From contig SCUM01000001.1 in assembly GCA_004297215.1 (NCBI GenBank), forward strand, positions 289,181 to 353,180: a stretch of 64,000 bases of DNA. The letters are read 5' to 3'. Positions 7,581 through 56,805 of the stretch are shown here, piece after piece. Position 1 is the first letter of the stretch. Each line of letters begins with the position of its first letter. The notes beneath the pieces were generated by a model. That model was not told the origin of the DNA and searched no databases. It saw only the letters and a list, made by a program, of their open reading frames with translations. The translations under genes and the position numbers were made by a program. This stretch comes from Patescibacteria group bacterium. GTDB lineage: Bacteria > Patescibacteriota > Patescibacteriia > UBA9934 > GWF2-40-263.

Positions 7581-9398
7581 CTAGGCGTTCTGCGCCTCGG
7601 CGCGCTTGCGGGCGTTGTAGTCGAGGAAGGTCTTGCGGATGCGGATGGACTTGGGGGTGACCTCCACCAGCTCGTCGTCCCCGATGTACTCGAGGCTCTG
7701 CTCGAGGGTGAGGATGCGCGGGGGCTCGATCGCCACGCTCGCGCCGTCGCCCTTCGAGCGCATGTTGGAGAGCTTCTTCTCCTTGCACGGGTTCACGTCG
7801 ATGTCCTCGGCTCGGGAGTGCTCTCCGATCACCATGCCCACGTACACCTGCGTCCCGACCGGCACGAACATCACCCCGCGCTCCTGCAAGTTGGTGACGG
7901 CGTAGCCCATCACGGTCCCCTGCTCCATGGAGACGATGGACCCGTGTTCATTGGCGCTCACGTCGCCGGCGAGCGGTCGGTAGCCCAAGAGCAGCGTGTT
8001 GATGATCCCCTGGCCCTTCGTATCCGTCATGAACTCGTTGCGGTAGCCGATGAGCCCGCGCGTGGGGATCTCGAACTCCATGAACGCGGTGCCGTTCTCC
8101 ACCTTCATGTCCTTCATGTCGCCGCGGCGCTTGCCCATCTTCTCGATGATGATCCCCTGGAACGCCTCGGGCGCCTCGATGGACACGGCTTCGAACGGCT
8201 CGGTCTTCTCCCCATGCTCCTCGCGGAAGATCACCTGCGGGCGGCTCACCTGCAGCTCGTACCCCTCGCGGCGCATTTTTTCAATCAGAATCGCCAGGTG
8301 CAGCTCGCCGCGCCCGGAAACGATGAACGCGCCGTCGCCTTCGCCTGGGGCGACGCGCAGCGCCACGTCGTTTTGCAGCTCGCGGTCCAGGCGCTCCTTG
8401 ATGTTGCGGCTGGTGGTGAACTGCCCTTCCTGGCCGGCGAACGGCGAGGTGTTCACGCCGAAGGTCATCTTCACGGTGGGTGCTTCCACGTTGAGCACGG
8501 GGAGCGCGACCGGGTTCGTCGGGTCGGCGAAGGTCTCGCCGATCTGCACGTCCTCGACGCCCGCCACGGCGACGATCTCCCCGGCGGACGCCTCGGGCAG
8601 GTCCACGCGCGCGAGCGCCTGGAACCCCTGGATGGCAACGACCTTGGCCGGCTTCACCTTCCCGTCACGGTCGATGTGCGCGATGCTTTGCCCAACCTTG
8701 ATGCGGCCGTTCACCACGCGCCCCACCGCGATGCGGCCCTTGTAGTTGTCGTACATCACGTTGACGATGGACATCTGGAGCGGCTTCTCGACGTCGGCCT
8801 GCGGGGCCGGGATGTGGTCGACGATCGCCTGGAACAGCGGGGTGATGTCGGTCATCGCCTCGAGGTCCGGGGTAAGGCCGGCCTTGCCGTTCACGGCCGA
8901 GGCGTAGATCACCGGGAAATCGGCCTGCTCTTCGCTCGCCCCCAGGTCCACGAACAGGTCGAAGGTGTGGTTGAGCACCCACTCCGGGCGCGCGTCCTTC
9001 TTGTCGATCTTGTTGATGACCACGATCACCTTGTGCCCGGCCTTGATCGCCTGCTTCAACACGAACTTGGTCTGCGGCATCGGCCCCTCCTTGGCGTCCA
9101 CGAGCAGCAGGCAGCCGTCCACCATGCTCATGATGCGCTCCACCTCGCCGCCGAAATCCGCGTGGCCCGGGGTGTCCACGATGTTGAACTTGATGTCCTT
9201 CCACACGATGGACGCGTTCTTGGCGAGGATGGTGATCCCGCGCTCGCGCTCCAATTCGTTCGAGTCCATGATGGTGGTCCCCATCGCGTCCGCGTTGCGG
9301 AACGTGTTGGACTGCTTCAAAAGCGCGTCCACCAGGGTGGTCTTCCCGTGGTCGACGTGGGCGATGATGGCGAAATTGCGCAGGTCAGGACGGGTCAT
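7581..9398 (-). CDS. typA: Translational GTPase TypA/BipA
   Basis: RNFAIIAHVDHGKTTLVD G1 motif and EF-G-like domain order; start is MTRPDL at 9398. The upstream in-frame extension in the ORF track runs through the tRNA-Lys gene and is rejected. Confidence 0.9.
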   Translation of the reverse strand: MTRPDLRNFAIIAHVDHGKTTLVDALLKQSNTFRNADAMGTTIMDSNELERERGITILAKNASIVWKDIKFNIVDTPGHADFGGEVERIMSMVDGCLLLVDAKEGPMPQTKFVLKQAIKAGHKVIVVINKIDKKDARPEWVLNHTFDLFVDLGASEEQADFPVIYASAVNGKAGLTPDLEAMTDITPLFQAIVDHIPAPQADVEKPLQMSIVNVMYDNYKGRIAVGRVVNGRIKVGQSIAHIDRDGKVKPAKVVAIQGFQALARVDLPEASAGEIVAVAGVEDVQIGETFADPTNPVALPVLNVEAPTVKMTFGVNTSPFAGQEGQFTTSRNIKERLDRELQNDVALRVAPGEGDGAFIVSGRGELHLAILIEKMRREGYELQVSRPQVIFREEHGEKTEPFEAVSIEAPEAFQGIIIEKMGKRRGDMKDMKVENGTAFMEFEIPTRGLIGYRNEFMTDTKGQGIINTLLLGYRPLAGDVSANEHGSIVSMEQGTVMGYAVTNLQERGVMFVPVGTQVYVGMVIGEHSRAEDIDVNPCKEKKLSNMRSKGDGASVAIEPPRILTLEQSLEYIGDDELVEVTPKSIRIRKTFLDYNARKRAEAQNA

Positions 9399-9432
9399 AA
9401 TGGGCGGATGGTAGCCAAAAATCGAATTCAGG

Positions 9433-9460
9433 TCAAGACAAAACCGCCTGAGGCGGTTCT
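9433..9460 (-). terminator. Rho-independent terminator downstream of tRNA-Lys
   Basis: On the minus strand, AACCGCCTCAGGCGGTT hairpin followed by TTTTG. Confidence 0.55.
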
Positions 9461-9466
9461 GACTGG

Positions 9467-9538
9467 TGGGTCGGGTGGGGATCGAACCCACGACCTTGGG
9501 CTTAAAAGGCCCCTGCTCTACCATTGAGCTACCGACCC
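9467..9538 (-). tRNA. tRNA-Lys (anticodon UUU)
   Basis: Manual cloverleaf: acceptor GGGTCGG/CCGACCC, D-arm GCTC-AATGGTA-GAGC, anticodon loop CTTTTAA, T-arm GTGGG-TTCGATC-CCCAC. Confidence 0.8.
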
Positions 9539-14342: not shown

Positions 14343-14392
14343 ATCGGGGATGAGTCAAGTTGGCGGAAGTATAAGAAAAGACGGGGAAAGCG

Positions 14393-15604
14393 TCAAGCCC
14401 GCTTCACTTCGAAGACGAAACTCTTCAGATAGGCGGATTCCGGGAAATAGACGGACATCGGGTGGTCGGCGCTTTGGCGGACGGAGGCGAGGGTGTGCAG
14501 GTGCACGCCGGCTTGGACAGATGCGCGTCGGAGCGTGAACGCAAGGTCGGCTTCGGGGAAGAAGTGGGAGCAGCTGGACGTGACGAAGGTGCCGCCGTCC
14601 TTCACCAGCTTCATCGCGGCGCGATTGATGAAGTGATACGCCTTGGCTCCGGCTTCGACGTCCTTCTGCCCCTTGATGATGGCCGGCGGGTCGACGATGA
14701 CCATGTCGTATTCGCCCTGGGCGCCCGCAAGCCATTGGAAGATGTCGGTCTGTTCGGTCGTGAACGTTTCGGGTCGTATGCCGTTGAGCTTCGCGTTCTG
14801 CGCGCACAGTTCGAGCGCGCGCGGCGACTCGTCCACGTTATGCACGCGCGCGGCTCCTCCGGCCATGGCGTAGACGCCGGTCGCCCCGGTGTAGGAGAAA
14901 AGGTTGAGCACCGACGCGCCCTTGGCGAAATGACGGACGCGCTCGCGCAGGTCCTTCTGGTCGCAGAAGAACCCGGTCTTCTGCCCGTCGATCGCGTCGG
15001 CCACGAACGTCAGGCCGTTCTCGGTGAACGGGACGGGGGCGGCGACCTTACCAACGCGCACGCCTGCGGAAAGCGCGAGCATCTCATCCTTTCGCCCGCT
15101 CATGTCGCTGCGCTCGACCACGTTCTCGACGCCGAGCGCCGAGACGATGGCCGCCACGATGTCCTCGCGTAGGCCGTCGAGCGCGGCGGTCGCGATCTGG
15201 AACACGGCCGTGTCGCCGTACCGGTCCACCACGAGGCCCGGCAGCCCGTCGGATTCGCCGAAGCAAACGCGGAATCCGGTCGTAGCCGTCCCGGGGCCAT
15301 ATCCCATCCGTACGCGACGTTCATGGGCTTTCCGCAGCCGCGTCTCGATGAACGCCCGGTCGATGGTCGCCTCGCCCGGCGCGAACACGCGCACGGCGAT
15401 GGAGCCCTGGCGCGAGAACGAACCAGTGGCGATCACCTCGCCCTTCCGGTCGGCCACGTGCACGAACGCGCCGTGCGGCACCGACTCAAATGCCCCCTGC
15501 CCTGAGCCTGTCGAAGGGTCGAACGCGCCCGAAAACACCCAAGGGTGCCCGTAGGCGACCGATGCCTCCTTTCCTGCCTTGAGCTTGAGCGTGGGGTAAG
15601 ACAT
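14393..15604 (-). CDS. rlmI: RlmI/RlmK-family 23S rRNA (m5C) methyltransferase (PUA plus class I MTase)
   Basis: GHPWVF hallmark, N-terminal PUA-like domain, and a C-terminal SAM-MTase with the DPPA motif (MVIVDPPA). Confidence 0.75.
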   Translation of the reverse strand: MSYPTLKLKAGKEASVAYGHPWVFSGAFDPSTGSGQGAFESVPHGAFVHVADRKGEVIATGSFSRQGSIAVRVFAPGEATIDRAFIETRLRKAHERRVRMGYGPGTATTGFRVCFGESDGLPGLVVDRYGDTAVFQIATAALDGLREDIVAAIVSALGVENVVERSDMSGRKDEMLALSAGVRVGKVAAPVPFTENGLTFVADAIDGQKTGFFCDQKDLRERVRHFAKGASVLNLFSYTGATGVYAMAGGAARVHNVDESPRALELCAQNAKLNGIRPETFTTEQTDIFQWLAGAQGEYDMVIVDPPAIIKGQKDVEAGAKAYHFINRAAMKLVKDGGTFVTSSCSHFFPEADLAFTLRRASVQAGVHLHTLASVRQSADHPMSVYFPESAYLKSFVFEVKRA

Positions 15605-15709
15605 ATGCGTGTAGCGAAGGGATTACGAGAGGTAAGGGATGAGCGTAACAGAAAATGGGCTTCCGAACCAGGGGCACGGCACTCCTATGATTCATAGGTG
15701 ATTCATGGG

Positions 15710-15738
15710 TTGACCGACGGCCTTTTCCGTCATATATA
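15710..15738 (+). promoter_or_regulatory. Sigma70-type promoter TTGACC-N17-TATATA upstream of the sigma-factor gene
   Basis: -35 at 15710-15715 and -10 at 15733-15738, with a 17-nt spacer. Confidence 0.5.
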
Positions 15739-15772
15739 TGCACGGGCACATTCACAATCGAACGAGGTTGGC

Positions 15773-17350
15773 ATGCCTGAAAGGAAACGGCGACGGGATC
15801 GGATGCGGATCCCAAAAAAACACCTCCTACTCAAGGCGGAAGTGCGGGAGGACTATCACGGCTTTACCGAGTATGTCACGGCCATCCGCCCGTTCGTCCG
15901 CCGGCTCGCGGAACAAGAGCTCGAGGCGGCCATCGAACGTCATCGTCGCCAAGATCCGTCTGGCCGTCCCGCCATCGTGTACGACCAGCTCCCCCACGTG
16001 ATCTGGGTGGCCATGCGCAGAAACGCGCATGAGATGCACCTGATCGATAAGATCCAAGAAGGGATCATCGGCGTCCTGACCGGACTCGAAGGCTATGATC
16101 CGGAGCAGCGGACGAGATTCGGAAACTTCATCCGTGTATGCATCCGGTATGCCATCGACCAGGCAGCCATCACGATGGACGAACGACGCCCGTATCGGAT
16201 TCCTTACTCCGCATACAAGAAAATCTGGCCGGTGCGACGCGCGATCTACGCGCTGACCAAAGATGGAGGCTCCTACCCCACGAATGAGGAAATCTGGCTC
16301 TATCTGTCCAAGGACGAACAACAGCGCCCACACCAAAAAGGAGCCGGGGATCGGGAACTGACCCTGGCGGAGGTGACGCTCGCCCATCGGCTGATTTACG
16401 GGAAAAACATCAGCTGGCATGCGCCCGCCCTTCCTGTGGCAGGAAGCGGCACGACTATCGAGAACCTGATCCCTGCGGACGCAGACACGTCCAGGCTCGC
16501 CGAAAGCATGGATACGGCCGAAGAGTTGGCCGAATTCATGATAAGCGTACGCCAGGTGACGGCACGCATGCCGTGGAAACACCAAGGCGTTGCCAGGCTG
16601 CGGCTGGGCATCGAGACGCCCGAACCGCTGACGCTCGAGGAGATCGCCATGCGCTTCGGTGTCACGAAGCAGGCGAAAAGCCTCATCGTGAAAAACATCG
16701 ACGGACGTCTCGCAGAACGCGGTTGGAGCCTCGACCTCCTCCGAGGACTGGTCGAACGGCTTGAGTCCATAAAAGAATGCCTGGAGGGATGCCCGATCGG
16801 CCTCCCGGATGCGATCGAGTTGTTTCCAGCGCCGCTTGAACGCCCGCTCCTCGATCATCCCATCGTCTCTGACGGCAAGCGGATCGCGGACATCCTTGCT
16901 GAACACGGACGGGAAGACGCACGAGGACTCCTCGTCCCCGCGGCCTTCCGCATCATTGCCGTCCGTTTGCGGCTAACGCCGACGGAAGCAAAGGCGGCAA
17001 TCGCGTCGGCACAGACCGCGGGCATAGTGACGATCATGCCCGAGGGCGCGGTCCTTATGCCGAGCACAAAGAAACCCGTGCCGTTGCGGAGGGAATTGCG
17101 TCCCTTCGATGTGAAAGATTCCGTACGAGCCGATAGGCGCGGCTTGATTCAATGGGACGAGGCTACCTGGGGGACGATACGCGTGCTTGCGCAGCGGGCA
17201 GGAGTCTCTTATCACACGCTCAAGGCGCGGTTCGCCGACGCATTGAATATCAGACGGTTGGAAGCACGTGATGCTGGAGGCAAACCACAGACCTTCTTCA
17301 AGGAATCCGACGCCAAACGCCTCTTGCTGGAGCACTCGTCTCGCGGCTAA
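15773..17350 (+). CDS. Sigma-70 family RNA polymerase sigma factor (regions 2, 3 and 4) with a ~200-aa C-terminal extension
   Basis: Region 2: HLIDKIQEGIIGVLTGLEGYDPEQRTRFGNFIRVCIRYAIDQAA...DERRPYRIP, which aligns with sigma70 LIQEGNIGLMKAVDKF...IR.P. Region 4.2: TLEEIAMRFGVTKQAKSLIVKNIDGRLAER. The start is assumed to be MPERK (15773). The ORF also opens at GTG 15698. Confidence 0.65.
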   Translation: MPERKRRRDRMRIPKKHLLLKAEVREDYHGFTEYVTAIRPFVRRLAEQELEAAIERHRRQDPSGRPAIVYDQLPHVIWVAMRRNAHEMHLIDKIQEGIIGVLTGLEGYDPEQRTRFGNFIRVCIRYAIDQAAITMDERRPYRIPYSAYKKIWPVRRAIYALTKDGGSYPTNEEIWLYLSKDEQQRPHQKGAGDRELTLAEVTLAHRLIYGKNISWHAPALPVAGSGTTIENLIPADADTSRLAESMDTAEELAEFMISVRQVTARMPWKHQGVARLRLGIETPEPLTLEEIAMRFGVTKQAKSLIVKNIDGRLAERGWSLDLLRGLVERLESIKECLEGCPIGLPDAIELFPAPLERPLLDHPIVSDGKRIADILAEHGREDARGLLVPAAFRIIAVRLRLTPTEAKAAIASAQTAGIVTIMPEGAVLMPSTKKPVPLRRELRPFDVKDSVRADRRGLIQWDEATWGTIRVLAQRAGVSYHTLKARFADALNIRRLEARDAGGKPQTFFKESDAKRLLLEHSSRG

Positions 17351-17374
17351 AGGAACGGATCCGACGATCGCGCA

Positions 17375-17403
17375 CTAGCCCTCAAAAGGGCTAGTTTTTC
17401 TTT
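17375..17403 (+). terminator. Rho-independent terminator after the sigma-factor gene (overlaps the pyrG stop)
   Basis: CTAGCCC-TCAAAA-GGGCTAG followed by TTTTTCTTT. Confidence 0.6.
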
Positions 17404-19001
17404 GCCGCGTCCACGAACGCCTGGAACAATGGGTGGGGCTTGAGCGGGGAGCTCTGGAACTCGGGGTGGAACTGGACGCCGACGAAAAACGGGTGGTCCT
17501 TGAGCTCGATGATTTCCACAAGGGCCCCGTCCGGGCTGGTGCCGGCCACCGTGAGCCCGCACGTGGCGAGCTTCTCGCGATACTCGTTGTTGAACTCGTA
17601 GCGGTGGCGGTGGCGTTCCGAGATCGTGTCCGTGCCGTACGCCGCGCGGCTCTTGGTGCCGGGCAGGAGCGCGCAGTCCCACGAGCCCAGGCGCATGGAG
17701 CCGCCGTACTCGCGCTTGAGCATCTTCTTGGCCTGGTCCGGCATCACGTGGATGACGGGCGATTTCGTGTCCGCGGCCACCTCGGTGGTGTGCGCGTCCG
17801 CGATTCCGCACACGTTGCGCGCGAACTCCACGGCGGCAAGCTGCATCCCGTAGCACAATCCGAGGTACGGCACCTTGTTTTCCCGGGCGAAGCGCACGGC
17901 CGCGATCATCCCTTCCACCCCGCGCGTGCCGAACCCGCCCGGCACCACGATGCCGTCGTAGCCCTTGAGCACCGCGTCGGCGCCCAGCTTCTCGATGTCC
18001 CCGGCGTCCACCCAGGTGAGGCGCGGCTGGCGGTGCGTGGCCCAGACCGCGTGCTTCACGGCCTCGATCACGGAAATGTACACGTCCGAAAGCACGAACC
18101 CGCCCGTGGCGAAATATTTCCCGACCATCGCGATATTCAGGGTTTCCGTGTCCGCGCCAATGCGGTCGTTCACCTCCTGCCAACGCGCGAGGTCGACCGG
18201 CTTGTCGGGCAATCCGAGCTGCCCGAGCACCAGGGAGCCGAACCGCTGGTCCTCCAGGATGAGCGGAATCTCGTAGATGCTGCCGACGTCCGGCGCGGCG
18301 ATCACCCGCTCCTTGGGCACGTTGCAGAATAGGGCGATGCGCTCCTTGCGCTTGTCGTCCATCGGGAGGGTGGAGCGGCCCACCACGAACTCGGGCTGGA
18401 TCCCCATCGCGTTCAGCATGCGCACGCTCTGCTGCACGGGCTTGGTCTTCATCTCGCCGAGGTTGCCCGGCACCGGCAGGTACGCCACGTGCACGTGGAT
18501 CACGTCCTCTGGCCTGTGCATCTTCATGATGCGAGCGGCCTCGAAGAAGATCCCGTTCTGGTACTCGCCCACGGTCCCGCCCAGCTCGATCACGCACACG
18601 TCCGAGCCGTTCGCGCCCAGCTCGAACCGGCGGATGATCTCGTCGGTGACGTGCGGGATCGCCTCCACGTCCTCCCCTTCGTACTCGAACGCGCGCTCGC
18701 GGCGCAGCACTTCGGCGTATACCTGGCCGGTGGTGAGATAGTTCACGCGCTTGAGCGGCCGGCCCAGGAACCGCTCGTAGTTGCCCAGGTCCTGGTCGCA
18801 CTCAAGCCCGTCAGAGGTGACGAACACCTCGCCGTGCTCGCTCGGGCGGATCGTCCCCGCGTCCTGGTTCAGGTACATGTCCACCTTCATGGCGGACACG
18901 CGGTAGCCGCGCGCCTCAAGGAGCGCCCCAAGGGAGGCGGTGGTGATCCCTTTTCCGAGCCCGGAAATCACCCCGCCTGATACGAATACGAATTTGGACA
19001 T
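17391..19001 (-). CDS. pyrG: CTP synthase
   Basis: MSKFVFVSGGVISGLGKGITTAS N-terminus and a C-terminal glutamine amidotransferase domain (GLCYGMQ); 536 aa. Confidence 0.95.
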   Translation of the reverse strand: MSKFVFVSGGVISGLGKGITTASLGALLEARGYRVSAMKVDMYLNQDAGTIRPSEHGEVFVTSDGLECDQDLGNYERFLGRPLKRVNYLTTGQVYAEVLRRERAFEYEGEDVEAIPHVTDEIIRRFELGANGSDVCVIELGGTVGEYQNGIFFEAARIMKMHRPEDVIHVHVAYLPVPGNLGEMKTKPVQQSVRMLNAMGIQPEFVVGRSTLPMDDKRKERIALFCNVPKERVIAAPDVGSIYEIPLILEDQRFGSLVLGQLGLPDKPVDLARWQEVNDRIGADTETLNIAMVGKYFATGGFVLSDVYISVIEAVKHAVWATHRQPRLTWVDAGDIEKLGADAVLKGYDGIVVPGGFGTRGVEGMIAAVRFARENKVPYLGLCYGMQLAAVEFARNVCGIADAHTTEVAADTKSPVIHVMPDQAKKMLKREYGGSMRLGSWDCALLPGTKSRAAYGTDTISERHRHRYEFNNEYREKLATCGLTVAGTSPDGALVEIIELKDHPFFVGVQFHPEFQSSPLKPHPLFQAFVDAAKKN

Positions 19002-19076
19002 AAGAAAATGTAGGGTGAAGGATGTAGTATGAAGGATTTACCATCCTACATCCTACATTCTACATCCTACATACAT
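19002..19076. repeat. Intergenic imperfect palindrome of ATGTAGG/GATGAAGG motifs (between rplI and pyrG)
   Basis: Left arm atgtagggtgaaggatgtagtatgaaggat; loop ttacc; right arm atcctacatcctacattctacatcctacat. Same family as 11034-11111. Confidence 0.6.
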
Positions 19077-19979: not shown

Positions 19980-20008
19980 TTGACAAAACCTCAAAAATAT
20001 GGTATAAA
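19980..20008 (+). promoter_or_regulatory. Strong sigma70-type promoter TTGACA-N17-TATAAA (locus A), near-identical to the promoter at 57801
   Basis: -35 at 19980-19985 and -10 at 20003-20008. The 36-nt block is about 85% identical to 57801-57829. Confidence 0.65.
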
Positions 20009-33740: not shown

Positions 33741-33884
33741 GAAAACTTGAAGAACCAAAACTTGAAGGACCAGAGGAGACGTGAAAGGTTGAAGAACGAA
33801 AGGACGAAGTTCAAACTTCGTCCTTTCTTCTTTCTTCCTTTCGGGCGACCTTTGGTCCTTCAAGTTTTGGTTCTTCAAGTTTTT
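33741..33884. repeat. Nested palindrome between convergent genes: 31-bp inverted repeat of an AAAACTTGAAG-containing arm, flanking an inner terminator hairpin
   Basis: Left arm AAACTTGAAGAACCAAAACTTGAAGGACCAG (33743-33773). Right arm TGGTCCTTCAAGTTTTGGTTCTTCAAGTTTT (33853-33883). Inner hairpin AGGACGAAGTT-CAAA-CTTCGTCCT followed by a T-rich run. Confidence 0.6.
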
Positions 33885-33889
33885 TCGCT

Positions 33890-36800
33890 TCATGGTTGCC
33901 GCTTGCGTCGGACCGGACCCTTCGCGGTCGGGAGCTCGAACCAGAACAGGCTGCCCTTCCCCTCCGTCGACAAGAACCCGATGCTCCCCCCGTGCTGCTC
34001 CACGAAATACTTGGCGATGGAAAGCCCGAGCCCCGAGGCGTTTGGCAGCATGGAGGAGGCGTTGCTCGCGCGGTAGAACCGGGTGAAGATGCGCGACTGT
34101 TCCGCCTCCGGGATGCCGATGCCCTCGTCCTCGACTTCGAACCGGACGCGGTTCCCGACCGCGGAAAGGCGCACGGCGACGCGTCCGCCTTTCTTGGAGT
34201 ACGCGATCGCGTTCTCCATGAGCTTCCCCGCGGCCTCCCGGATCTTCTCCGGATCCGCCTCCACGGCCTCGGCGGCCTCCTTGGCGGCCTCGTACGAGCA
34301 ATCGATGCCCTTCGCCCGGCAGCGCGGCTTCCATTCGGTAAGCACGCTGGACACGACGCTCGTGAGCGACAGGCGCTCGCGCGCGAAGGTCACGCGCCCC
34401 TCCTCGATGTCGGTGGCCACGAGCAGGTCGCCGATGCGGCGGATCACCTCGACCTCCGCGCCGTGCGTGATCTCCAGGAGCTGCCGCTGCCGCGCATGCA
34501 GCTTCCCCGCGCGTCCCTCCATGAGCGCCTCGAGGTTCCATCGCACCGCGTTGAGCGGCGTGCGCAGCTGGTGGGCGACGATGCGGATGAAGCTGTTCTT
34601 GAGCTCGTTCAACTCGCGGAGCTTCTCCTCGGAACGGAACCGCTCCGTGACGTCGCGGAAGATCCCCAGGTTGCGGTTGCCGCCCAGGTTGATGATGCGC
34701 ACGTCGGCGATCAGCTCGGTGCCGTCCTTGCGCATGACCGAGGCGTCCATGCCGTTGCGCCCCTCGCGGATGAGGGTGAGCAGGAAGGCGAGCTTCTCCT
34801 CCTCGGTAAGCCGGTGGTCCATGAGGTCGCGCAGCGACATCCCGCGCAATTCCTCCTCGTCGTAGCCGAGCATCGAGCGGGCGGCGGGGTTGGCGTCCAC
34901 GATGCGCCCGTTGTCCGCCATCACGAACACCCCGTCGATGGACTGCTCGATGTAGGAGCGGTACCGCTTCTCGCTCTCCGTGAGCCGTTCCTGCGTCTGC
35001 CGCTCTTCCGTGACATCGAACGCCATGCCCCCCACAAGCCGCACGCCCGCGTCGTTTATGATGGGGAACTTCATCACCTGGAAGGTACGGGGCTTGCCGG
35101 CGATCGTCACCTGCTCGACCGCGTTGAACGGCGCTCCGCTCTCCAGCACCTTCCGGTCGCCTTGCAGCGATGTCTCCGCGACCTTCTTCCCCAGGAGCTT
35201 CGCGACCGTGCGTCCCTGGATTTCCTTCCATGGGCGTCCAAGCGTGCGCCGCAGCGCGGCGTTGCCGTACACGTAGCGCCCGGCGGCGTCCGTCATCCAT
35301 GCGGGGGACGGGTGCATGTCCATGAACAGCTGGAACCGTTGCCGCGCGCGGTCGAGCGCGGTCTCGGCGTGCGCGCGCGCCGCCTTGTTGAGGGAGAAGG
35401 CGTACCCGACCGCGATGTCGTCGGCAAGCTCCTCGAACAGCTTCAGGTCCTCCGCGTGGAACGCGGCGGCGGCCTCCGAGGCGAGGATGAACGCCCCGAA
35501 CGGCTTGCCGTCCATCTTGAGCGGGAAGGCGGCGAGCGACGCGGCTCCGGCGAGGACGAGCTCCGGCGGGAATCCGGAGGCCCGGCCTCCCTCATGCGCG
35601 AGCACGCTTACGCCCTCGCGAAGCGCGCGCGCGACCGGATGCGCCGCGGCGGCCTTCCCCGGCGGGAGCAAGACGGAAGAAGCGACGTCGATGCCGGCGG
35701 CGGCGGCCACGCGCGGCGCGCGGCGCGGCGGCGCGACCACGATCCACGCGCCCAGGAACCCGGCGACGTCCACGCCCACGCGGCACGCCTCCTCGAAGAG
35801 GTCCTGCACGTCCTGCATGCGGAACAGCGCGCGGTTCACGCGCGCCGCCATCTCGCGCCGGCGCGCGAGCTGTTGGATGAGCCGGTCGCGCTCCGTCAGC
35901 CCGTTGACATGGCCTTCCATCGCCTTGGCGGTCGCGTTGAACGCCTCGGCGAGCGCGCGCATCTCGTTGTGCGCCTTCGGCACGTCCAGGCGCGCGCGAT
36001 ACTCCCCGCCTCGCAGGCGGGAAAACCCGTCCGCGAGGGCGCGGATGGGGTCGATGAGCAGGCGGCGGAACGCGTAGAGGGAGAGCGCGAGCGCGGCGAG
36101 GCCGAGCGCGGCGAGCAAGAGGAACGCGAAGGAGAACCTCCGATCGATGTCCGCGAGCACCCTCTCTTCGTCTATGCCGACCGAGGCGTACAGCCGCGCG
36201 TCGTGGGTCTCGCCGACCGGGGCGAACTGGAACGTCCTGCGCTTCCCGTCGAGTCCGGTCGCGCGCACCGACCCCCGCTCCCCGCCCAGCATGGCCTGCG
36301 CGAGCGCCGTCGCGGACGCGTCCATGCCCATGTAGCGCTCCGGCTCCGGGTACCGCGTCACGACCGTGCCGCCGCGGTCCACCTCGAGGAACGCCATCCC
36401 GTCGGGCAGCCCGATGTCGGCGGCCAGCTCGTTGAGCCAATCGAGGTCGAGCGCGATGAACACGACCTGCCGCACGTCCCCCGACGCGTCAAGCACCGGG
36501 TAGGCGGCGTTCAGGGCCCGGCGTCCCGTGATGCGACCGACTTGATAGGAGCCGACGGCGAACCGCTTCGTGGCCACGGCCTGCTTGAACCAATCCCGGT
36601 CCGCGGAACTCGTTTTCTCGACAAGCGGGAGCGCGCTGCAGGTGATGATGCCGTCCGCGCCGACCACCCCGATGTTGGCGAAATTCGGGGTCTCGGTCCT
36701 GATACGGGCCAACGCCAGGCCGCAGGCGGCCGGGTCGTCGCCTGTGACCGTGGAATCCTGGGCGAGCGTGAACAGGTTCTGCCGCGTGGAATCCAACAGG

Positions 36801-37003
36801 GCGTCCTGCTGCGCGACGAACGCCGTCAACAGCCGGCGGGACTGCCCGTGCACGGCCTCGATGCGGTGGGAGCGCTCCGATAACCCGATGCCGACCATGA
36901 TGGCCGCGGCCGGGAGGAATACGATAAGCAGCGCCAACACCGCCCGGGCGCGCAGGGATGCGAATCGCAAAAAACGCGAATGGCGGTGCTCCTCCTTTGG
37001 CAT
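33890..37003 (-). CDS. Large sensor histidine kinase: periplasmic sensor domain, HAMP, GAF, two PAS, HisKA and HATPase_c
   Basis: Start MPKEEH at 37003 (AGGAGGA SD). HisKA H-box RIVAHQLRTPLNAV. G2 box GLGLSIAKYFVEQHGGSI. No receiver domain. Confidence 0.8.
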   Translation of the reverse strand: MPKEEHRHSRFLRFASLRARAVLALLIVFLPAAAIMVGIGLSERSHRIEAVHGQSRRLLTAFVAQQDALLDSTRQNLFTLAQDSTVTGDDPAACGLALARIRTETPNFANIGVVGADGIITCSALPLVEKTSSADRDWFKQAVATKRFAVGSYQVGRITGRRALNAAYPVLDASGDVRQVVFIALDLDWLNELAADIGLPDGMAFLEVDRGGTVVTRYPEPERYMGMDASATALAQAMLGGERGSVRATGLDGKRRTFQFAPVGETHDARLYASVGIDEERVLADIDRRFSFAFLLLAALGLAALALSLYAFRRLLIDPIRALADGFSRLRGGEYRARLDVPKAHNEMRALAEAFNATAKAMEGHVNGLTERDRLIQQLARRREMAARVNRALFRMQDVQDLFEEACRVGVDVAGFLGAWIVVAPPRRAPRVAAAAGIDVASSVLLPPGKAAAAHPVARALREGVSVLAHEGGRASGFPPELVLAGAASLAAFPLKMDGKPFGAFILASEAAAAFHAEDLKLFEELADDIAVGYAFSLNKAARAHAETALDRARQRFQLFMDMHPSPAWMTDAAGRYVYGNAALRRTLGRPWKEIQGRTVAKLLGKKVAETSLQGDRKVLESGAPFNAVEQVTIAGKPRTFQVMKFPIINDAGVRLVGGMAFDVTEERQTQERLTESEKRYRSYIEQSIDGVFVMADNGRIVDANPAARSMLGYDEEELRGMSLRDLMDHRLTEEEKLAFLLTLIREGRNGMDASVMRKDGTELIADVRIINLGGNRNLGIFRDVTERFRSEEKLRELNELKNSFIRIVAHQLRTPLNAVRWNLEALMEGRAGKLHARQRQLLEITHGAEVEVIRRIGDLLVATDIEEGRVTFARERLSLTSVVSSVLTEWKPRCRAKGIDCSYEAAKEAAEAVEADPEKIREAAGKLMENAIAYSKKGGRVAVRLSAVGNRVRFEVEDEGIGIPEAEQSRIFTRFYRASNASSMLPNASGLGLSIAKYFVEQHGGSIGFLSTEGKGSLFWFELPTAKGPVRRKRQP

Positions 37004-37175
37004 GGCTTCAAGTATACCGCATCCCGCGTCCGGGTTCATATCGCGGTGCACACCGCCCGTCGGAAGGAGCGGGCCTACTGCAACCTCCTCCCCTCGGGTA
37101 TACTTGTGGATAACCGACCTGCCTAAGCAGGTCGTCCCAAGGCCGAAGGCCGAAGGATCCTAACCATCGCTTCGT

Positions 37176-40946: not shown

Positions 40947-42662
40947 TCAGGCGCCGGGCTTATCGCCGGTCGTCGCGTGTGGCGTCGCCGTGCCTGGCGA
41001 GGCATCCGCGCCCTCGGCCTGCGCCAGCCGCTTCTTGAGCTCGGCCATGCGCAGCTCGCGGCCCACCAAGTGCGCGTTCACGCGCTCGAGCTCGCGTTTT
41101 TCCGCTTCCAGCTCGCGGACGCGGTCGGCGACTTCCTTTTCCAGGCGTTGTGCGTACGAGCGCTGTTCCTCGGCGAGCCGCTTTTGCTGCGTCACGTCCT
41201 CGAGGATGAGCAGCGCCTCAAGCGCCTTGCGCCCGGCAAGCGGCGTGCCCGTGAGACGGAACGCCCGCCCGTCCGCTCCGGGAATCTCCCGCTCGAAGGG
41301 CGCTCCGGCGAGCGCGCCGCGCAGCTCCCCTTCGAGCGCGCGTTCCCGGCACCAGGCCGAGGCAAGCAGGCCGTCGCCTTCCATGACCCCGGTCCATTCC
41401 TTCGCGCGGGCGTTCGCGGACGCGACCGTCCCGTCGGCGGCGACCGTGATGATCCCCACCGGCGCCTGGGTGAACACGGCCTCGTAGAGCTGGTTGAGGC
41501 TGCCGAAATACTCGTCCAGGCGCTCGGCCATGGCGTTGACCCCCTGCGCGGCCTGGCCGATCTCGTCACGCTTGATGTCGGCGGCCGGCACGCGCGCGCC
41601 GAACTTCCCTTGCGCGAGCTCCTTGATGACCGCCGTGCACGCGCCCACGCGCCGGCCCATCACCACGCTCAACCCCACGCCCAACGAGGCCGAGAACGCC
41701 AAGGTGACGAACAGCACGAGCGCGTTCTGCGCGCGCGCCGCGCGCGCGGCCGCGTCCACTTCGGTCGTGTCGATTTCCGAGACGAGCGTCCACCATCTGC
41801 CCGCCTGGCAGCGCGAGGCGCCGATCACGGGCACACCGCGGTAGTCGATCCACTCTCCGGACGCGGATTCGCCGGCCTCGCGACATCGTCGCACCGGCTC
41901 GGTGTCGACCTTGACCTTGAGCACCACATCCGGGACGAAACGCGACGGAGTGACGAAATGGCCGTCCGCGTTCACCAGATAGGTCTCGAAGGTCGACTCG
42001 GGACGATCGGAAAGGATCTCTCCCAACAGCGCGGTGAGGTCGCGCGCCGAGACATGCAGCACGAGCACGCCGCCCGGCGTGCCTGCCTCCTTGGCGAGCG
42101 GGGCGGAAAAATGCAGGGTCGGCTCGGAGGGGTGTCCTTGCTCGTCACCCTCGAGGACGACGAAGCCGTTTGTCACGGTCTCCACGAACGAGGCGGCCAT
42201 GGCCCGGCGCCAGGCGTATTCGTATTCCAATTCCTCGGCGCTCTCGCTGTGTCCCACCCGCAGCGGCTCGGACGAGGCCACCACGCGCCCGTCGGCGTCG
42301 AACACTTCGGCAATCAGGATGGAACGATCGAGCGGCATCTTGAAGTCGCGCAAATACGCGCCGAGCTCGCGCGAGGCCTCCTGCGCCTCCGGGCTCTCCC
42401 TCGGCAGCGCGGCGATACGCGCGATCAGGGCGTTGATATGCCCGTCCGACGACCAATCGGACGCGCGCTTGGCGAGCCCGTCGAGGTACAGCGTGACGGA
42501 ACGCTCGGCAAGCTCCGCCGTGACGGCCACGTGCTCCGCGAACTTGTCCTCCACGCCCTGCCGGATGGTCCCCAGGCTCACGCCGAACACCACGAGGAGC
42601 GGGACGACCCCCGAAAGCACGAAGGCGAGGACGAGCTTGGAGCGGATGCGCATGGGACGCAA
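40947..42662 (-). CDS. Membrane sensor protein: periplasmic domain, TM, HAMP, PAS and a C-terminal coiled coil, with no catalytic output domain
   Basis: N-terminal TM LVLAFVLSGVVPLLVVFGV. HAMP-like IKELAQGKFGARVPAA...AQGVNAMAERL. PAS segment. Terminal heptads ELEAEKRELERVNAHL. Confidence 0.55.
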   Translation of the reverse strand: MRPMRIRSKLVLAFVLSGVVPLLVVFGVSLGTIRQGVEDKFAEHVAVTAELAERSVTLYLDGLAKRASDWSSDGHINALIARIAALPRESPEAQEASRELGAYLRDFKMPLDRSILIAEVFDADGRVVASSEPLRVGHSESAEELEYEYAWRRAMAASFVETVTNGFVVLEGDEQGHPSEPTLHFSAPLAKEAGTPGGVLVLHVSARDLTALLGEILSDRPESTFETYLVNADGHFVTPSRFVPDVVLKVKVDTEPVRRCREAGESASGEWIDYRGVPVIGASRCQAGRWWTLVSEIDTTEVDAAARAARAQNALVLFVTLAFSASLGVGLSVVMGRRVGACTAVIKELAQGKFGARVPAADIKRDEIGQAAQGVNAMAERLDEYFGSLNQLYEAVFTQAPVGIITVAADGTVASANARAKEWTGVMEGDGLLASAWCRERALEGELRGALAGAPFEREIPGADGRAFRLTGTPLAGRKALEALLILEDVTQQKRLAEEQRSYAQRLEKEVADRVRELEAEKRELERVNAHLVGRELRMAELKKRLAQAEGADASPGTATPHATTGDKPGA

Positions 42663-44179: not shown

Positions 44180-47100
44180 CTATTGGCCCGAAGCGGCAGG
44201 GGCAGATCGGACGAACGCGTTCAGGGCCGCCCTCGTAAGCGGTCCGACCAGGCCGATGGGCGGGATGTTCTTCAATGCCTGAAACGCGGCGACGGCGCGC
44301 TGGGTGATCGGTCCATAGGTGCCGGAGGCGGACACGTCTTCTGGGAAATGCTTGAGGCACCGAAGGATCTCCTGCAGTCGTACGACCGCGTCACCGACGT
44401 TCCCAGGGCCGAGGTTCGAGGTGAACGGCGAGGACAGGACGCAGGCGGAGGCCACCGGCTCGGGGGCCCTAGCCTCGACGCACATGGCCGGATCGTCCTT
44501 CGCGTTGATCGTGCGGATGCTCCCCGCGGCCTCGTGGGTGTCGTTCCAGACCACCCGATCGAGCTTCGGCTCCCCGCGCAAGGACACCTGGAGCGCCAGG
44601 CGGTGGTGCCAGGCGGCGTCCAGTTCGAGCAGTTCGAACGTGACGGCGGAACAGTCGCGTGTATCGACTAGGACGCGGACGTCGTTGTAGTCGAAATCCC
44701 GTCCGGAATCCTCGAACCCGACGATGGTCCTGCCGTCGGCGGCGGGCGTCACGCGGACGTACGGCGTCCCCATATGCCGTTCGGTCCCGTCCGGGTTCAC
44801 GATGTACAGGTCGTACCCGACCTCGTCGCACGCGACCTCGCACGGCGCTGGCAGAGCGTCCGCAGCGGGGACGGACGGAGGAGGCTCGACGTCGGTCGTG
44901 GGCGGAAGCGGCGGGAGGACGCCGGCAGGATCGACGTAGGGTTCTTCCACGTCCTCGACGATCGGAAGGATCGCCCCGACGACGTACGCGCCGTCCTCGT
45001 TGGCGTCGATGAGCGCGTACTGGCCGATGCCAAGATGCGAATCCGGCCAGATGAGCAGGTCACTCACGAGCGCTCCCGCGTTGGACAAGGCGATGCGCAC
45101 GTTGTGGAGCCACCCGGCGTCCACCGCGAGCACGGTCACCACGATCCTGGTCCAGTCCGAGTAGTCCACCCGGATCACGACGTCGTCGAAGTCGAAGTCC
45201 GATCCCTTGTCCTCGAACCGGATGATGTCCACGGTGTCGCTCACGCGCTCGACGCGCGCGTACCGCGGGTCGGTCATGTGGCGCTCGGTCCCGTCGGGAT
45301 TCACGATGTAGATGTCGTAGGACGCGGCGGAGAAGTCGACGTCCGGCGGGGCGGGTTGCGACGGCACGGGTTCGGTCACGGGGCTCGGCGGCGGAAGTTC
45401 GCTCGTCGTCTCCGGCGCGGACGGTTCCGGGGAGGTCGTCGTCCCGGTGTCGGATCCGGGATTGCTCGGAGGGTTCACGACGATGCTCCCTCCCCCGCTG
45501 CGCCGGGTGATTGAGAAGGAGATGTCCGTGGCGTCCGCAGCGGCATACGTCCCGTCGGCGTCGATGTCCGCATCGATGGTGCAGGTGCCAGCCGCGACGA
45601 ACGTGACGATGCCGGTGGTCGAGCCGATGGTGCACACTCCGGTCGTGGTGCTCGTGTACGTCTTGGTACCGGCTCCAGCGGAAGCGGTGGACGTGATGGT
45701 CGGCTCCGCTTCGGTGATCAGGTAACTCGACTCGTACGAGCCCGCGTCGATGGTGAGCGTGCGGGCGGCGAGGGTCACGCTGAAGGAGATGTCCGTGGCG
45801 TCGGCCGTGTCATAGGTGCCGTCGGCGTCGATGTCCGCATCGATGGTGCAGGTGCCGGCGGACACGAACGTGACGATCCCCGTGGTGGAACCGATGGTGC
45901 ACACGCCGGTCGTGGTGCTCGTGTACGTCTTGGTACCGGCTCCAGCGGAAGCGGTGGACGTGATGGTCGGAGGCGTGTCCGTGAGCTCGTAGCTGGCGAC
46001 GTACGAGCCCGCGTCGATGGTGAGCGTGCGGGCGGCGAGGGTCACGCTGAAGGAGATGTCCGTGGCGTCGGCCGCGTCGTAGGTGCCGTCGGCGTCGATG
46101 TCGGCGTCGATGGTGCAGGTGCCGGCCGCGACGAAGGTGACGATACCTGTGGTGGAACCGATGGTGCAGACGCCGGTCGTGGTGCTCGTGTAGCTCTTCG
46201 TCCCCGTTCCGGCGGAGGCGGTCGACGTGATGGTGGGCGGGGTGTCCGTGAGCGAATAGCTGGAGACGTACGAGCCTGCGTCGATCGTGAGCGTGCGGGC
46301 GGCCAAGGTGACCGAGAACGAAATGTCCGTCGCGTCGGCCGTGTCATAGGTGCCGTCGGCGTCGATGTCGGCGTCGATGGTGCAGGTGCCGGCCGCGACG
46401 AAGGTGACGATGCCGGTCGTTGATCCGATTGTACAGACGCCTGTGGTCGTGCTCGTGTACGTCTTCGTTCCCGTCCCGGCGGAGGCGGTCGACGTGATGG
46501 TCGGGGGCGTGTCCGTCATGGAGTAACTGGCCACGTACGAGCCCGCGTCGATGGTGAGAGTGCGGGCGGCCAGCGTCACCGAGAACGAGATGTCCGTCGC
46601 GTCGGCCGTGTCATAGGTGCCGTCGCTCGCGATGTCGGCATCGATCGTGCAGGTGCCGGCCGCGACGAAGGTGACGATGCCGGTGGTCGAGCCGATGGTG
46701 CACACGCCAGTCGTGGTACTCGTGTACGTCTTGGTGCCGGCTCCAGCGGAAGCGGTGGACGTAATCGTCGGCGGCGTGTCCGTGAGCGTGTAGCTCGCGA
46801 CGTACGAGCCGGCGTCGATGGTGAGGGTACGGGACGCCAGGCTCGTGGTGAAGTTCAGGATGGATCCTTCGAACGCGGTCGTGCAAGAGACGTTCGGATA
46901 CGTGCCGGTGAGCGCGCTCGTGCACGCGCGGATCTTGAAATAATAGGTGATCCCGGAGGTGAGGCCGGTCACGGCATAGCTGAACGGCTGGGTGGACGAC
47001 CCGCCGGCCGTGAGCGCGGCCGTGCCGGTGCCGTCGTCGACGGTGACGGTCGTCGTCCCGGAAGAAAGATCCGAGACGGTGCCGTACACGAACTGGATGC

Positions 47101-49218: not shown

Positions 49219-49283
49219 ACGTGAAAATCGTATCACGGCGCGGCGGGAAGCGAAAAATCCCGCTTGAACGAGCGGGATTTTGG

Positions 49284-49354
49284 CAGGGACGGTGGGAATC
49301 GAACCCACGTCAGAGGTTTTGGAGACCTCCGTCCTACCATTGAACGACGTCCCT
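49284..49354 (-). tRNA. tRNA-Trp (anticodon CCA)
   Basis: Manual fold: acceptor AGGGACG/CGTCCCT, anticodon stem GAGGT/ACCTC with loop CTCCAAA, T-arm GTGGG-TTCGATT-CCCAC. Confidence 0.75.
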
Positions 49355-49371
49355 ACGCCGCGGCAGTATGT

Positions 49372-49400
49372 CAAAAACCCGCCCTCTTGTGAAGGGCGGG
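49372..49400 (-). terminator. Rho-independent terminator after rpmG
   Basis: On the minus strand, CCCGCCC-TTCACAAGA-GGGCGGG followed by TTTTT. Confidence 0.6.
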
Positions 49401-49410
49401 GTCTTGATGC

Positions 49411-49566
49411 TTACTTGGTCTCCTTGTGCGGCTGGTGGGCGCGGCAGCCTTTGCAGAACTTCGAAAGCTCCAGGCGCTCCTTGAGCGTCTTCTTGTTCTT
49501 GTGGCTCTGGTAATTGACCGTCTTGCACTGCGTGCACTCCAGCTTGATGAGGAAATCTTGGGACAT
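49411..49566 (-). CDS. rpmG: 50S ribosomal protein L33
   Basis: Hand translation gives MSQDFLIKLECTQCKTVNYQSHKNKKTLKERLELSKFCKGCRAHQPHKETK, which carries the L33 CxxC...CxxC zinc-ribbon and KNKK...ERLEL.K signature. It is under 60 aa, so absent from the ORF track. Confidence 0.8.
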   Translation of the reverse strand: MSQDFLIKLECTQCKTVNYQSHKNKKTLKERLELSKFCKGCRAHQPHKETK

Positions 49567-49623
49567 AATTGGCAATCTGATTGGTCGGAACCTTACGGAA
49601 AAACGCGATTCGTGTCAAGGGAG

Positions 49624-49699
49624 TGGAGCCGTTGACCGGGATTGAACCGGTGACCTCATCCTTACCATGGATGTGCTCTACCAACTGAGCTACAACGGC
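49624..49699 (-). tRNA. tRNA-Thr (anticodon GGU), CCA encoded
   Basis: GCCGTTG-TA-GCTCAGTTGGTAGAGC-A-CATCC-ATGGTAA-GGATG-AGGTC-ACCGG-TTCAATC-CCGGT-CAACGGC-T-CCA. Confidence 0.85.
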
Positions 49700-49790
49700 A
49701 TATTTCTTCTACCAAGTCCGACGCCCTGATGGGGTCGGACCCCCGACCTGCGCCGCAGCGCAGCGTCGGGGCTGAGCTACAACGGCGTGT
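49700..49790 (-). pseudogene. tRNA-Thr 5' fragment (acceptor plus D-arm, 25 nt, identical to tRNA-Thr GGU) interrupted in the D-loop by a structured 57-nt insert; non-functional tRNA-like element
   Basis: Minus strand reads GCCGTTGTAGCTCAG[CCCCGACGCTGCGCTGCGGCGCAGGTCGGGGGTCCGACCCCATCAGGGCGTCGGAC]TTGGTAGAagaaatat and is immediately followed by the intact tRNA-Thr(GGU). Confidence 0.5.
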
Positions 49791-49837
49791 TTTTATCGCG
49801 ATGGCCCCGCCAGCCGAAGCCCCTCAAGGGCGAAGGC

Positions 49838-49912
49838 TGGAGCCGCCTGTCGGATTTGAACCGACGACCTGCTGTTTACAAAACAGCTGCTCTACCCCTG
49901 AGCTAAGGCGGC
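49838..49912 (-). tRNA. tRNA-Thr (anticodon UGU), CCA encoded
   Basis: GCCGCCT-TA-GCTCAGGGGTAGAGC-A-GCTGT-TTTGTAA-ACAGC-AGGTC-GTCGG-TTCAAAT-CCGAC-AGGCGGC-T-CCA. Confidence 0.8.
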
Positions 49913-49913
49913 G

Positions 49914-50150
49914 TTATTCAAGCTTCCAAGTCCCATCCATAAGCTTTTCCTTCTTTATCCTCGACCAGCCCTTAATCTGACGTTCTCTTCTTCTTGCACA
50001 CAGGAGGATCTTGTGGATCTCGTAGTATACGAGACGGACGGGAAGCCGTTTTGCCGTCCATAAAGCGGCCCTGCCCGCACGATGATCTTCCATCCTTCGC
50101 AGAAGATTTTCAGAACAACCTACATAATAACTGCCATCGCCACATTCCAA
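49914..50150 (-). CDS. GIY-YIG nuclease-domain protein (YhbQ/UPF0213-like)
   Basis: VYMLECGDGSYYVGCSENLLRRMEDHRAG...LVYYE follows the GIY-YIG pattern. The start (GTG or ATG near 50150) is uncertain; the ORF track extends to 50246. Confidence 0.55.
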   Translation of the reverse strand: MECGDGSYYVGCSENLLRRMEDHRAGRAALWTAKRLPVRLVYYEIHKILLCARRRERQIKGWSRIKKEKLMDGTWKLE

Positions 50151-50167
50151 CATGTACACGACGACGC

Positions 50168-50301: not shown

Positions 50302-50330
50302 ACCACATAAACGGCACGAAGGTAGTCGAA

Positions 50331-55603: not shown

Positions 55604-55655
55604 AGGGAACGAAAACTTGAAAACTTGAAATCTTGAAGGTCCAAGGGGGGTGTCC

Positions 55656-56738: not shown

Positions 56739-56805
56739 ATTCAGGTTTGTCAGGTTTTTTCAGGTTGGTCAGTTGGTGAGGATCTCCTTACCGACCTTAC
56801 AGACC

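Follow-up and report, generated by a model that had tools for sequence, protein, structure and literature searches.

The window analysed here, a 64,000-nt stretch of a Patescibacteria contig (SCUM01000001.1, positions 289,181 to 353,180 of the forward strand), carries between an rlmI-like gene and pyrG a gene for a sigma-70-family protein whose C-terminal tail ends in one copy of a ~73-residue module, probably a winged helix-turn-helix (HTH) of the MerR/excisionase kind as judged at the level of the fold. The module belongs to a repeat family that is undescribed and has no Pfam model, and that occurs elsewhere in tandem arrays, some of them fused to helicases. The identity of the protein as a sigma factor was already known from its NCBI annotation; the novelty lies in what the tail is made of and in the repeat family of its module. 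Sigma factors normally read promoters through sigma2 and sigma4 only, and the additions described so far are, to our knowledge, N-terminal regions or, in extracytoplasmic function (ECF) sigma factors, C-terminal sensor or inhibitor domains. In the literature that we searched, no sigma factor with a C-terminal winged HTH is described. The architecture is unusual and the mechanism that it implies is testable, but both stand on one metagenomic sequence and on weak fold matches.

The sigma gene and its tail are one real, single gene. An uninterrupted open reading frame (ORF) runs from 15698 to 17350 on the plus strand, on which all features of the gene described below also lie; it counts 550 aa from its first GTG and contains both strings quoted in the initial annotation, FGNFIRVCIRYAIDQAA and RLESIKECLEGCPIGLPD. 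Since the promoter-like site TTGACC-N17-TATATA falls within the ORF as counted from that GTG, the true start is probably ATG 15773, which yields a coding sequence of 525 aa (15773-17350, stop included) preceded at a 5-nt spacing by a Shine-Dalgarno-like GAGG (15764-15767); residue numbers given here are those of the 525-aa version. Translation could also begin in frame at GTG 15698 (550 aa) and probably at TTG 15710 (546 aa). The NCBI product TAK03835.1, encoded on an 842-kb contig and named 'sigma-70 family RNA polymerase sigma factor [Patescibacteria group bacterium]', is 546 aa long, a length that fits a start at TTG 15710, on the same bases as the -35-like hexamer. In an independent Logan assembly (SRR8426588, 4.2-kb contig) the gene caller chose the same start as we do and gave a 525-aa product that is 100% identical, and a 40-aa fragment from a Joint Genome Institute (JGI) metagenome falls in the same 90% cluster as the sigma protein. 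The GC content at third codon positions (GC3) is even along the ORF, being 0.72 in the sigma part and 0.67 in the tail, and a six-frame listing contained no rival long ORF with coding-like GC3 in the stretch of the extension. Directly after the stop codon there is an intrinsic-terminator-like hairpin, ACTAGCCCTCAAAAGGGCTAGT (17374-17395), followed by a T run (the whole element spanning 17374-17405), which sits between the convergent sigma gene and pyrG. The C-terminal extension of about 200 aa that the initial annotation had proposed is therefore real and in a single frame, and a frameshift or separate gene, which it had named as one way in which the proposal could fail, is very unlikely.

By its profile matches and alignments the protein is a very divergent member of the sigma-70 family with the architecture of group 2 or group 3 factors (regions 1.2, 2, 3.0 and probably 4). 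It is not an ECF sigma factor: it possesses regions 1.2 and 3.0, which align with RpoS, RpoD and RpoH, and its regions 2.4 and 4.1 are some 120 residues apart. The family assignment made earlier was borne out by hidden Markov model (HMM) searches: Pfam Sigma70_r2 (PF04542) scored 26.2 bits against a cut-off of 24 and TIGR02937 scored 44.8 against a cut-off of 42.9, the latter in a single alignment spanning region 2 to region 4, and the best single profile match was phrog_351 (sigma factor) with 66 bits over residues 69-325. The best partial NCBIfam matches were the RpoS and RpoD models, with 57 bits over regions 1.2 to 3.0. A phmmer search of PDB sequences aligned the protein with RpoS (E 3.5e-13), and single alignments with RpoD/SigA chains covered residues 68-301. 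Pfam gave no match to Sigma70_r3 on the sigma protein and none to Sigma70_r4 or Sigma70_r4_2 at E<=1; weak HTH_10 and MarR_2 matches appeared at the position of region 4.

The conserved and the replaced residues were compared in an alignment of the sigma protein with three typical sigmas (A2). Regions 1.2-like to 2.4 occupy 15848-16168 (residues 26-132), as delimited by Sigma70_r2, the RpoS alignment and A2, and within them the core-binding helix 2.2 is conserved (D-x-IQEG-x-G; LIDKIQEGIIGV here and LLDLIQEGNIGL in typical sigmas). Region 2.3/2.4 (16115-16168) reads RFGNFIRVCIRYAIDQAA where typical primary sigmas have FSTYATWWIRQA (aligned stretch FGNFIRVCIRYAID versus FSTYATWWIRQAV), and the residues that read the -10 element are replaced: Y430 by F, W433 by V, W434 by C, Q437 by Y and T440 by D, in Escherichia coli sigma70 numbering. 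The divergence of region 2.4 noted in the initial annotation was confirmed, the aromatic WW pair having given way to V and C. Its exceptional character was not, since the group-3 sigmas sigma32, sigma28, sigmaF and sigmaB also lack the pair, so that the loss is unremarkable by itself. A region 3.0-like helix, ERRPYRIPYSAYKKI... (16181-16255), aligns with TIRLPIHVVKEL of RpoS as well as in A2, where it retains the motif R-I-P. Relative to the three typical sigmas, a 23-residue insertion (16382-16450) falls in sigma3 and the linker. A probable region 4.1-4.2 follows at 16538-16717 (residues 256-315), with the TIGR02937, TIGR02393 and phrog_351 alignments extending through it, and A2 shows its scaffold to be retained (RLRLGI...LTLEEIAMRFGVT, with R-x-R-x-G and LTLEEI-x-x-x-x-GVT conserved). 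The -35 recognition helix, VTKQAKSLIV (16661-16690) versus the typical VTRERIRQIE, has K, Q, S and L in place of the -35-reading residues R584, E585, R588 and Q589. The convincing alignment earlier claimed for regions 2.1-2.3 and 4.2 thus holds for region 2 and, in region 4.2, for the scaffold helix only, as the recognition helix has diverged as much as region 2.4. Region 4 ends at about residue 315-320, leaving a tail of some 205-210 residues.

This tail consists of a middle segment, predicted to be helical (16718-17107, residues 316-445), and the winged-HTH module (17108-17338, residues 446-522), the latter recognised by HMM and by hhalign and modelled by structure prediction, a check suggested with the initial annotation. 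An HMM of the repeat unit (79 positions; 178 units) found exactly one copy in the sigma protein (63.8 bits, E 4e-20, HMM positions 5-74 of 79), and hhalign gave a probability of 99.3% for its relationship to the repeat family. The copy keeps the scaffold residues of the family, namely G, GT, L, G-S, R, G and F-F/Y-x-E. In an AlphaFold2 (AF2) model of the 211-aa tail, made with an alignment of 72 repeat units, the module is predicted at a per-residue confidence (pLDDT) of 93-98 (~97) in the order beta-hairpin, helix, helix, beta-hairpin, helix. The helices of the middle segment reach pLDDT 60-80 and have no alignment support. No relatives of the middle segment were detected: it gave no match to the module HMM even with filters off, and in the exhaustive search described below only one, repeat-driven, alignment. 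We considered that it might be a degenerate second copy of the module and rejected this, as there was no HMM match and the hhalign probability was 1.5%. The ECF-type fused regulatory domain with which the extension had first been compared does not describe it: the extension is unlike the known ECF types and ends in a winged HTH, and the protein is not an ECF factor.

Foldseek comparisons of the module gave consistently MerR-, excisionase- or BldC-like folds, though all the matches were weak. Among PDB structures (E 0.15-2, target TM-scores 0.3-0.65) they were BldC (E 0.15, probability 0.8), mycobacteriophage Xis, the RdfS excisionase, the MerR-family protein NmlR, TraN and small terminase subunits. 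Among the BFVD models (E 0.006-0.4) they were the antirepressor N-terminal domain Ant-N (E 6e-3), Bro-N, PrtN, a MerR-like HTH and Excise. Beyond the fold, the variation among repeat units offers the one piece of indirect support for a putative sequence-specific binding of DNA by the module. In 338 units the scaffold is conserved (G457, G467-T468, L472, G477, S479, R486, G503, F508-Y509 and E511, as numbered in the sigma protein), and entropy peaks, at 3.4-4.0 bits, over the first residues of the second HTH helix, a pattern expected of a DNA-reading surface that differs between units. The family motif can be written ADxxGFF..G..YGT...L...LGIS..TI..R......GK...G....FY.E.DVR..C.DLL.

The family became apparent from an exhaustive HMMER search with the tail against 1.84 billion representative proteins (E<=1e-3), which returned 61 proteins, the query and 60 others, the latter matching the last ~70 residues of the tail in several stretches. 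All 60 carry from 2 to 13 copies of the module head to tail, the sigma protein being the one with a single copy. Their arrays always reach the C-terminus, closing there with a short basic stretch such as KKSKK. Fusion to a superfamily 2 (SF2) helicase was seen in 14 of the 60. ResIII and Helicase_C precede the array in nine representatives (P0007, P0022, P0027, P0037, P0048, P0049, P0060, P0061 and P0007 cluster relatives) and Helicase_C only in P0028 and P0032; three further representatives with a helicase domain have a leader of 69-81 residues. One of the helicase fusions, MFH1430203.1, is named 'DEAD/DEAH box helicase [Candidatus Uhrbacteria bacterium]'. At several loci (among L082, L083, L085 and L086) two or three adjoining array ORFs come after a helicase gene. 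No Pfam model scored above threshold on the arrays, the sub-threshold matches being AsnC-type, HTH_10, DUF2089, MerR_1 and HTH_17 only, and a multi-copy relative matched PHROGs described as DNA-binding protein, small terminase subunit, MerR-like regulator and excisionase.

The sole other protein found to join sigma-derived parts to the module was P0053 (683 aa, from a 3.7-kb Logan contig), in which two sigma-70 region-4-like HTHs (residues 123-184 and 231-294) are accompanied by a coiled coil and two modules, with no region 2. The 13 proteins returned by a profile search (A1) were all repeat proteins, with no sigma fusion among them, and a search of metagenome contigs (A3) returned three loci, all multi-copy arrays and none with a sigma domain. 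A second sigma-module fusion was not found in the exhaustive search, which would miss lone copies: two-copy proteins scored ~38 bits in it, and a lone copy is expected at ~20-30 bits, below the threshold of such a single-sequence search.

Concerning the expression of the gene, a promoter-like site of the housekeeping type lies at 15710-15738 (TTGACC at 15710-15715, 17 nt, TATATA at 15733-15738), as the initial annotation had stated. The strength attributed to it was overstated, because it agrees with the consensus at 9 of 12 positions and does not have the conserved final T; a strict consensus scan omits it, position 6 of its -10 hexamer being A. The pattern TTGAC-N17-19-TATA is enriched in the window, where four sites were observed against 0.07 expected, each upstream of a gene: rpmA, the sigma gene, ORF 20243 and ORF 57982, with the -10 hexamers TATACT, TATATA, TATAAA and TATAAA respectively. 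The three other sites are located at 14370-14396 (minus strand), 19980-20006 (plus) and 57801-57827 (plus). The hexamer ends in A at three of the four sites (TATAAA, TATAAA and TATATA), and the enrichment hints that these sites reflect the housekeeping promoter consensus of this genome. That the sigma gene has a promoter of this type argues that the housekeeping sigma transcribes it, and not the sigma protein itself. The sites at 19980 and 57801 also have in common a near-identical block of ~30 nt (CCCTTGACAAAACCYCWAAAATATGRTATAAAT).

Directly upstream of the -35 hexamer lies an operator-like element (15684-15709, no strand assigned), in which a 15-bp palindrome, CCTATGAtTCATAGG (15684-15698), overlaps a tandem 11-bp repeat in perfect phase, TGATTCATAGG then TGATTCATGGG (15688-15709). 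Palindrome and tandem repeat together make a candidate operator, and binding of it by the module of the protein itself is conceivable by analogy with BldC- and Xis-type domains, which bind direct repeats (PMC5859096). The position of the repeat beside the -35 hexamer is the sole hint of the autoregulation that the initial annotation had suggested. The window has no second copy of the 22-mer formed by the tandem repeat, for which 0 matches are expected at up to 3 mismatches. The single 11-mer TGATTCATRGG shows no enrichment over the rest of the window (16 matches against 14 expected), and therefore we do not propose a regulon.

The gene stands in a chromosomal setting, as the window also contains a mur ligase gene, ftsW, murG, mraY, typA, rpmA, the rlmI-like gene, pyrG, rplI and a tRNA cluster. 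The host is a member of Candidatus Uhrbacteria (Patescibacteria, or candidate phyla radiation, CPR), and the PyrG encoded next to the sigma gene has 94% identity with its counterpart in Candidatus Uhrbacteria RIFCSPHIGHO2_01_FULL_63_20. There too the rlmI-like gene adjoins pyrG, with flanks 87-90% identical in DNA sequence, and the slot between them (L027 7567-8707, 1141 bp) holds an unrelated ORF for a 289-aa membrane-anchored product instead of the sigma cassette. The cassette itself (15662-17403, 1742 bp) consists of the operator-like element, the promoter, the sigma gene and the terminator. The GC3 of the sigma gene is 0.70, versus 0.84-0.92 in the neighbouring genes. Because the cassette is absent from the slot of the nearest relative and its GC3 is low, the sigma gene is a strain-specific accessory cassette of a single gene, probably acquired horizontally. 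A search for insertion scars, as direct or inverted repeats at the cassette ends, gave only short matches within the conserved flanking genes (D8 and I1), which we judged to be chance. No other sigma gene and no other copy of the module was found in the window. Searches for homologues of the whole protein in a 5.8-billion-protein index and in GTDB genomes, viral contigs and metagenome contigs returned the identical sequence and generic sigmas (25-27% identity) only.

The reading that we favour, with about an even chance of being right, is that of an acquired alternative sigma factor which has kept core binding, reads the -10 and -35 elements in an idiosyncratic way and bears a tethered winged HTH that adds a contact with DNA or with array proteins. 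Such a protein would bind core RNA polymerase through its conserved region 2.2 and would direct it to promoters with non-canonical -10 and -35 elements, which we propose because the residues that do the reading in sigma70 are replaced. The tethered module would make an extra sequence-specific contact with DNA, most plausibly upstream of the -35 element, in the manner of a built-in activator or a reader of UP-elements. The gene would be transcribed by the housekeeping sigma from TTGACC-N17-TATATA, and the palindrome and tandem repeat beside the -35 hexamer would be a candidate control site, possibly for the module of the protein itself. If this is true, promoter specificity would here be built in a new way, by tethering a third DNA-binding domain to a non-ECF sigma factor, and the protein would be a natural example of the sigma-activator fusions designed by synthetic biologists. 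The winged-HTH family, in turn, may be a modular DNA-recognition system in Patescibacteria.

Several points weigh against this reading. The best fold matches of the module are weak (Foldseek E 0.15 in PDB and 6e-3 in BFVD), the sigma protein stays below the threshold of every Pfam HTH model, and winged HTH domains can also mediate contacts between proteins. The full-length AlphaFold model, made with 4 sequences, has a mean pLDDT of 46.9 and is unusable for placing the tail relative to sigma2 and sigma4. Neither target promoters nor binding sites of the module were identified, the promoter-adjacent 11-mer not being repeated elsewhere in the window. The fusion is a singleton from metagenome assemblies, with no orthologue in the protein, genome, viral and metagenome searches, so that its action as a sigma factor and its biological weight are putative. 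Finally, the loss of the WW pair and of all the -35-reading residues could equally reflect a loss of sigma function.

It is possible, if rather doubtful, that the protein goes further and acts as sigma and activator in one polypeptide, having lost the canonical reading of -10 and -35 elements and locating its promoters through the tethered MerR/Xis-like module, which would come from a lineage-specific family of modular DNA readers that form arrays. Promoters would then be tripartite, or the module would co-assemble head to tail with array proteins on direct repeats. Small CPR genomes are generally held to encode few regulators, and if such co-assembly took place it would recruit RNA polymerase to array-marked loci in a genome of this kind.

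An autoinhibitory or sensory role of the extension, which would fold back on sigma2 or sigma4 as in ECF41, ECF42 and ECF56 and control activity instead of touching DNA, seems to us unlikely. C-terminal extensions are the second most common mode of regulation among ECF sigma factors, with 19 groups (PMC7826278); no anti-sigma gene adjoins the sigma gene, whose neighbours are the rlmI-like gene and pyrG, and the 130-residue middle segment has no assigned function. Yet the protein has regions 1.2 and 3.0 and is not an ECF factor, and Pfam found no SnoaL, TPR or Cys-rich domain in it. The recognisable part of the tail is a winged HTH, and the arrays and helicase fusions in which the module occurs elsewhere fit nucleic-acid binding better. 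The full-length model lacks the quality needed to reveal a docking of the tail on the sigma domains.

A departure from transcription initiation altogether is improbable in our judgement. The protein would then be a sigma-derived DNA-binding or adaptor protein, or the product of a decaying acquired gene, in which the sigma-like domains serve only as HTH or polymerase-docking parts. The residues for promoter melting and for reading the -10 and -35 elements are replaced, the Pfam models Sigma70_r4 and Sigma70_r3 do not match, and the scores for curated sigma subfamilies all lie far under their cut-offs. In addition, P0053 shows that region-4-like HTHs and the module can be combined without region 2, and the gene, a singleton, is atypical in its codon usage. 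However, region 2.2 (D-x-IQEG-x-G) and the R-I-P motif of region 3.0 are kept, the regions are collinear, and an intact ORF of 525 codons is equipped with promoter, Shine-Dalgarno sequence and terminator. The missing WW pair is likewise a feature of group-3 sigmas.

We regard it as very unlikely that the gene was left over from a phage, a mobile element or a defence system, for instance as a phage-type or MzaA-like sigma factor, and inserted between housekeeping genes. The slot is variable with respect to the nearest genome and the GC3 is low; the top single profile match, phrog_351 with 66 bits, is a phage family; MzaA profiles match weakly (NCBIfam 45 bits, PADLOC 19.8 bits), and domains of the excisionase, small terminase subunit and antirepressor kinds, common in phages, resemble the module. 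Against this, phrog_351 is merely the generic sigma family of the PHROG library, and the MzaA match covers the generic sigma part only, at 45 bits where the cut-off is 800. No integrase and no other phage or defence gene was found within the 1.74-kb cassette or beside it. No relative turned up in 2.9 million viral contigs. An artefact of assembly or sequencing, in which a lost stop codon or a frameshift joined two genes, is scarcely credible: the lineage of origin is a single one, the Logan contig and the NCBI metagenome-assembled genome may share one sample and the middle segment has no homologues, but two assemblies from different pipelines give an identical protein, the codon-position GC pattern is even over the junction, among the six frames no other long ORF there has coding-like GC3, and there is one promoter and one terminator.

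Other features of the window were recorded alongside the sigma gene. Synteny with L027 breaks past the rlmI-like gene, where the window has rpmA and L027 has different ORFs. A sensor histidine kinase with dCache, HAMP, GAF, three PAS, HisKA and HATPase domains is encoded at 33890-37051 (minus strand), and a second HAMP protein at 40947-42662 (minus); so large a kinase represents fairly elaborate signalling for a CPR genome. The tRNA genes form a cluster of Trp-CCA, Thr-GGT, Thr-TGT and Tyr-GTA at 49281-50416 (minus), and a tRNA-Lys-TTT predicted by ARAGORN at 9464-9538 (minus) overlaps the 5' end of a typA/bipA-like ORF delimited at 7581-9524. At 45514-46841 a 267-bp unit is repeated 5.0 times with 86% identity (Tandem Repeats Finder, TRF, score 1849) and presumably encodes a repetitive, possibly surface, protein. 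Shorter repeats are found between pyrG and rplI (19008-19072; ATGTAGGATGAAGG twice and CATCCTA 4.4 times), at 33742-33892, where two pairs of 15-nt repeats, mutually inverted, flank an intergenic region, and at 55611-55637 and 56741-56813 (GAAAACTT 3.4 times and other units of 9-10 nt). The short intergenic tandem repeats may be binding sites of regulators.

Among known sigma factors, those of groups 1 and 2 (RpoD/SigA and RpoS) give the top sequence matches and share with the protein the 1.2-2-3-4 order, the IQEG of region 2.2 and the scaffold helix of region 4.2. They differ in that their equivalog cut-off of 378.7 bits is about 7-fold above the best score here (57.4 bits), and in that their residues Y430/W433/W434/Q437/T440 and R584/E585/R588/Q589 read F/V/C/Y/D and K/Q/S/L in our protein; they also lack both the 23-residue insertion in sigma3 and the 205-residue C-terminal tail. 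Group 3 factors (FliA/WhiG, RpoH, SigF/SigB and SigK) resemble it in a sigma part of ~300 aa, in region 3, in the absence of the WW pair and in idiosyncratic promoter-reading residues. Their own models are nevertheless far from satisfied, with 26.5 bits versus a cut-off of 189.6 for FliA_WhiG, 33.7 versus 323.1 for rpoH and 26.2 versus 298.65 for SigK, and we know of no C-terminal DNA-binding module in any of these families. The extended ECF sigmas (ECF41, ECF42, ECF56, ECF238 and others) are comparable in their long C-terminal extension and in the lack of an adjoining anti-sigma gene. In contrast to the present protein, a non-ECF sigma with a winged HTH, they lack regions 1.2 and 3 and their extensions are regulatory, being SnoaL-like, TPR, Cys-rich, DUF1835 or transmembrane domains (PMC7826278). 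MzaA of the MZA anti-phage system is alike in that a sigma-70 domain forms part of a larger multidomain protein and in its weak profile matches. MzaA, however, carries its sigma part at the C-terminal end (profile positions 463-687 of 726), the NF041931 score here is 45 bits against a cut-off of 800, and the neighbours of the sigma gene, the rlmI-like gene and pyrG, include no MZA partner genes. The module, for its part, finds its best structural matches in MerR/excisionase-type proteins (BldC, Xis, RdfS, TraN and PrtN), to which its predicted fold of beta-hairpin, HTH, wing and helix would correspond. These matches are weak (E 0.006-2, ~20% identity) and the Pfam thresholds for MerR and HTH_17 are not reached. 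It differs from these single-domain proteins also in having a conserved motif of its own and in occurring in covalent arrays of 2-13 copies. On direct DNA repeats that follow each other at about one helical turn, domains of the BldC and Xis type line up head to tail (PMC5859096), and such a mode of binding would suit covalent tandem arrays.

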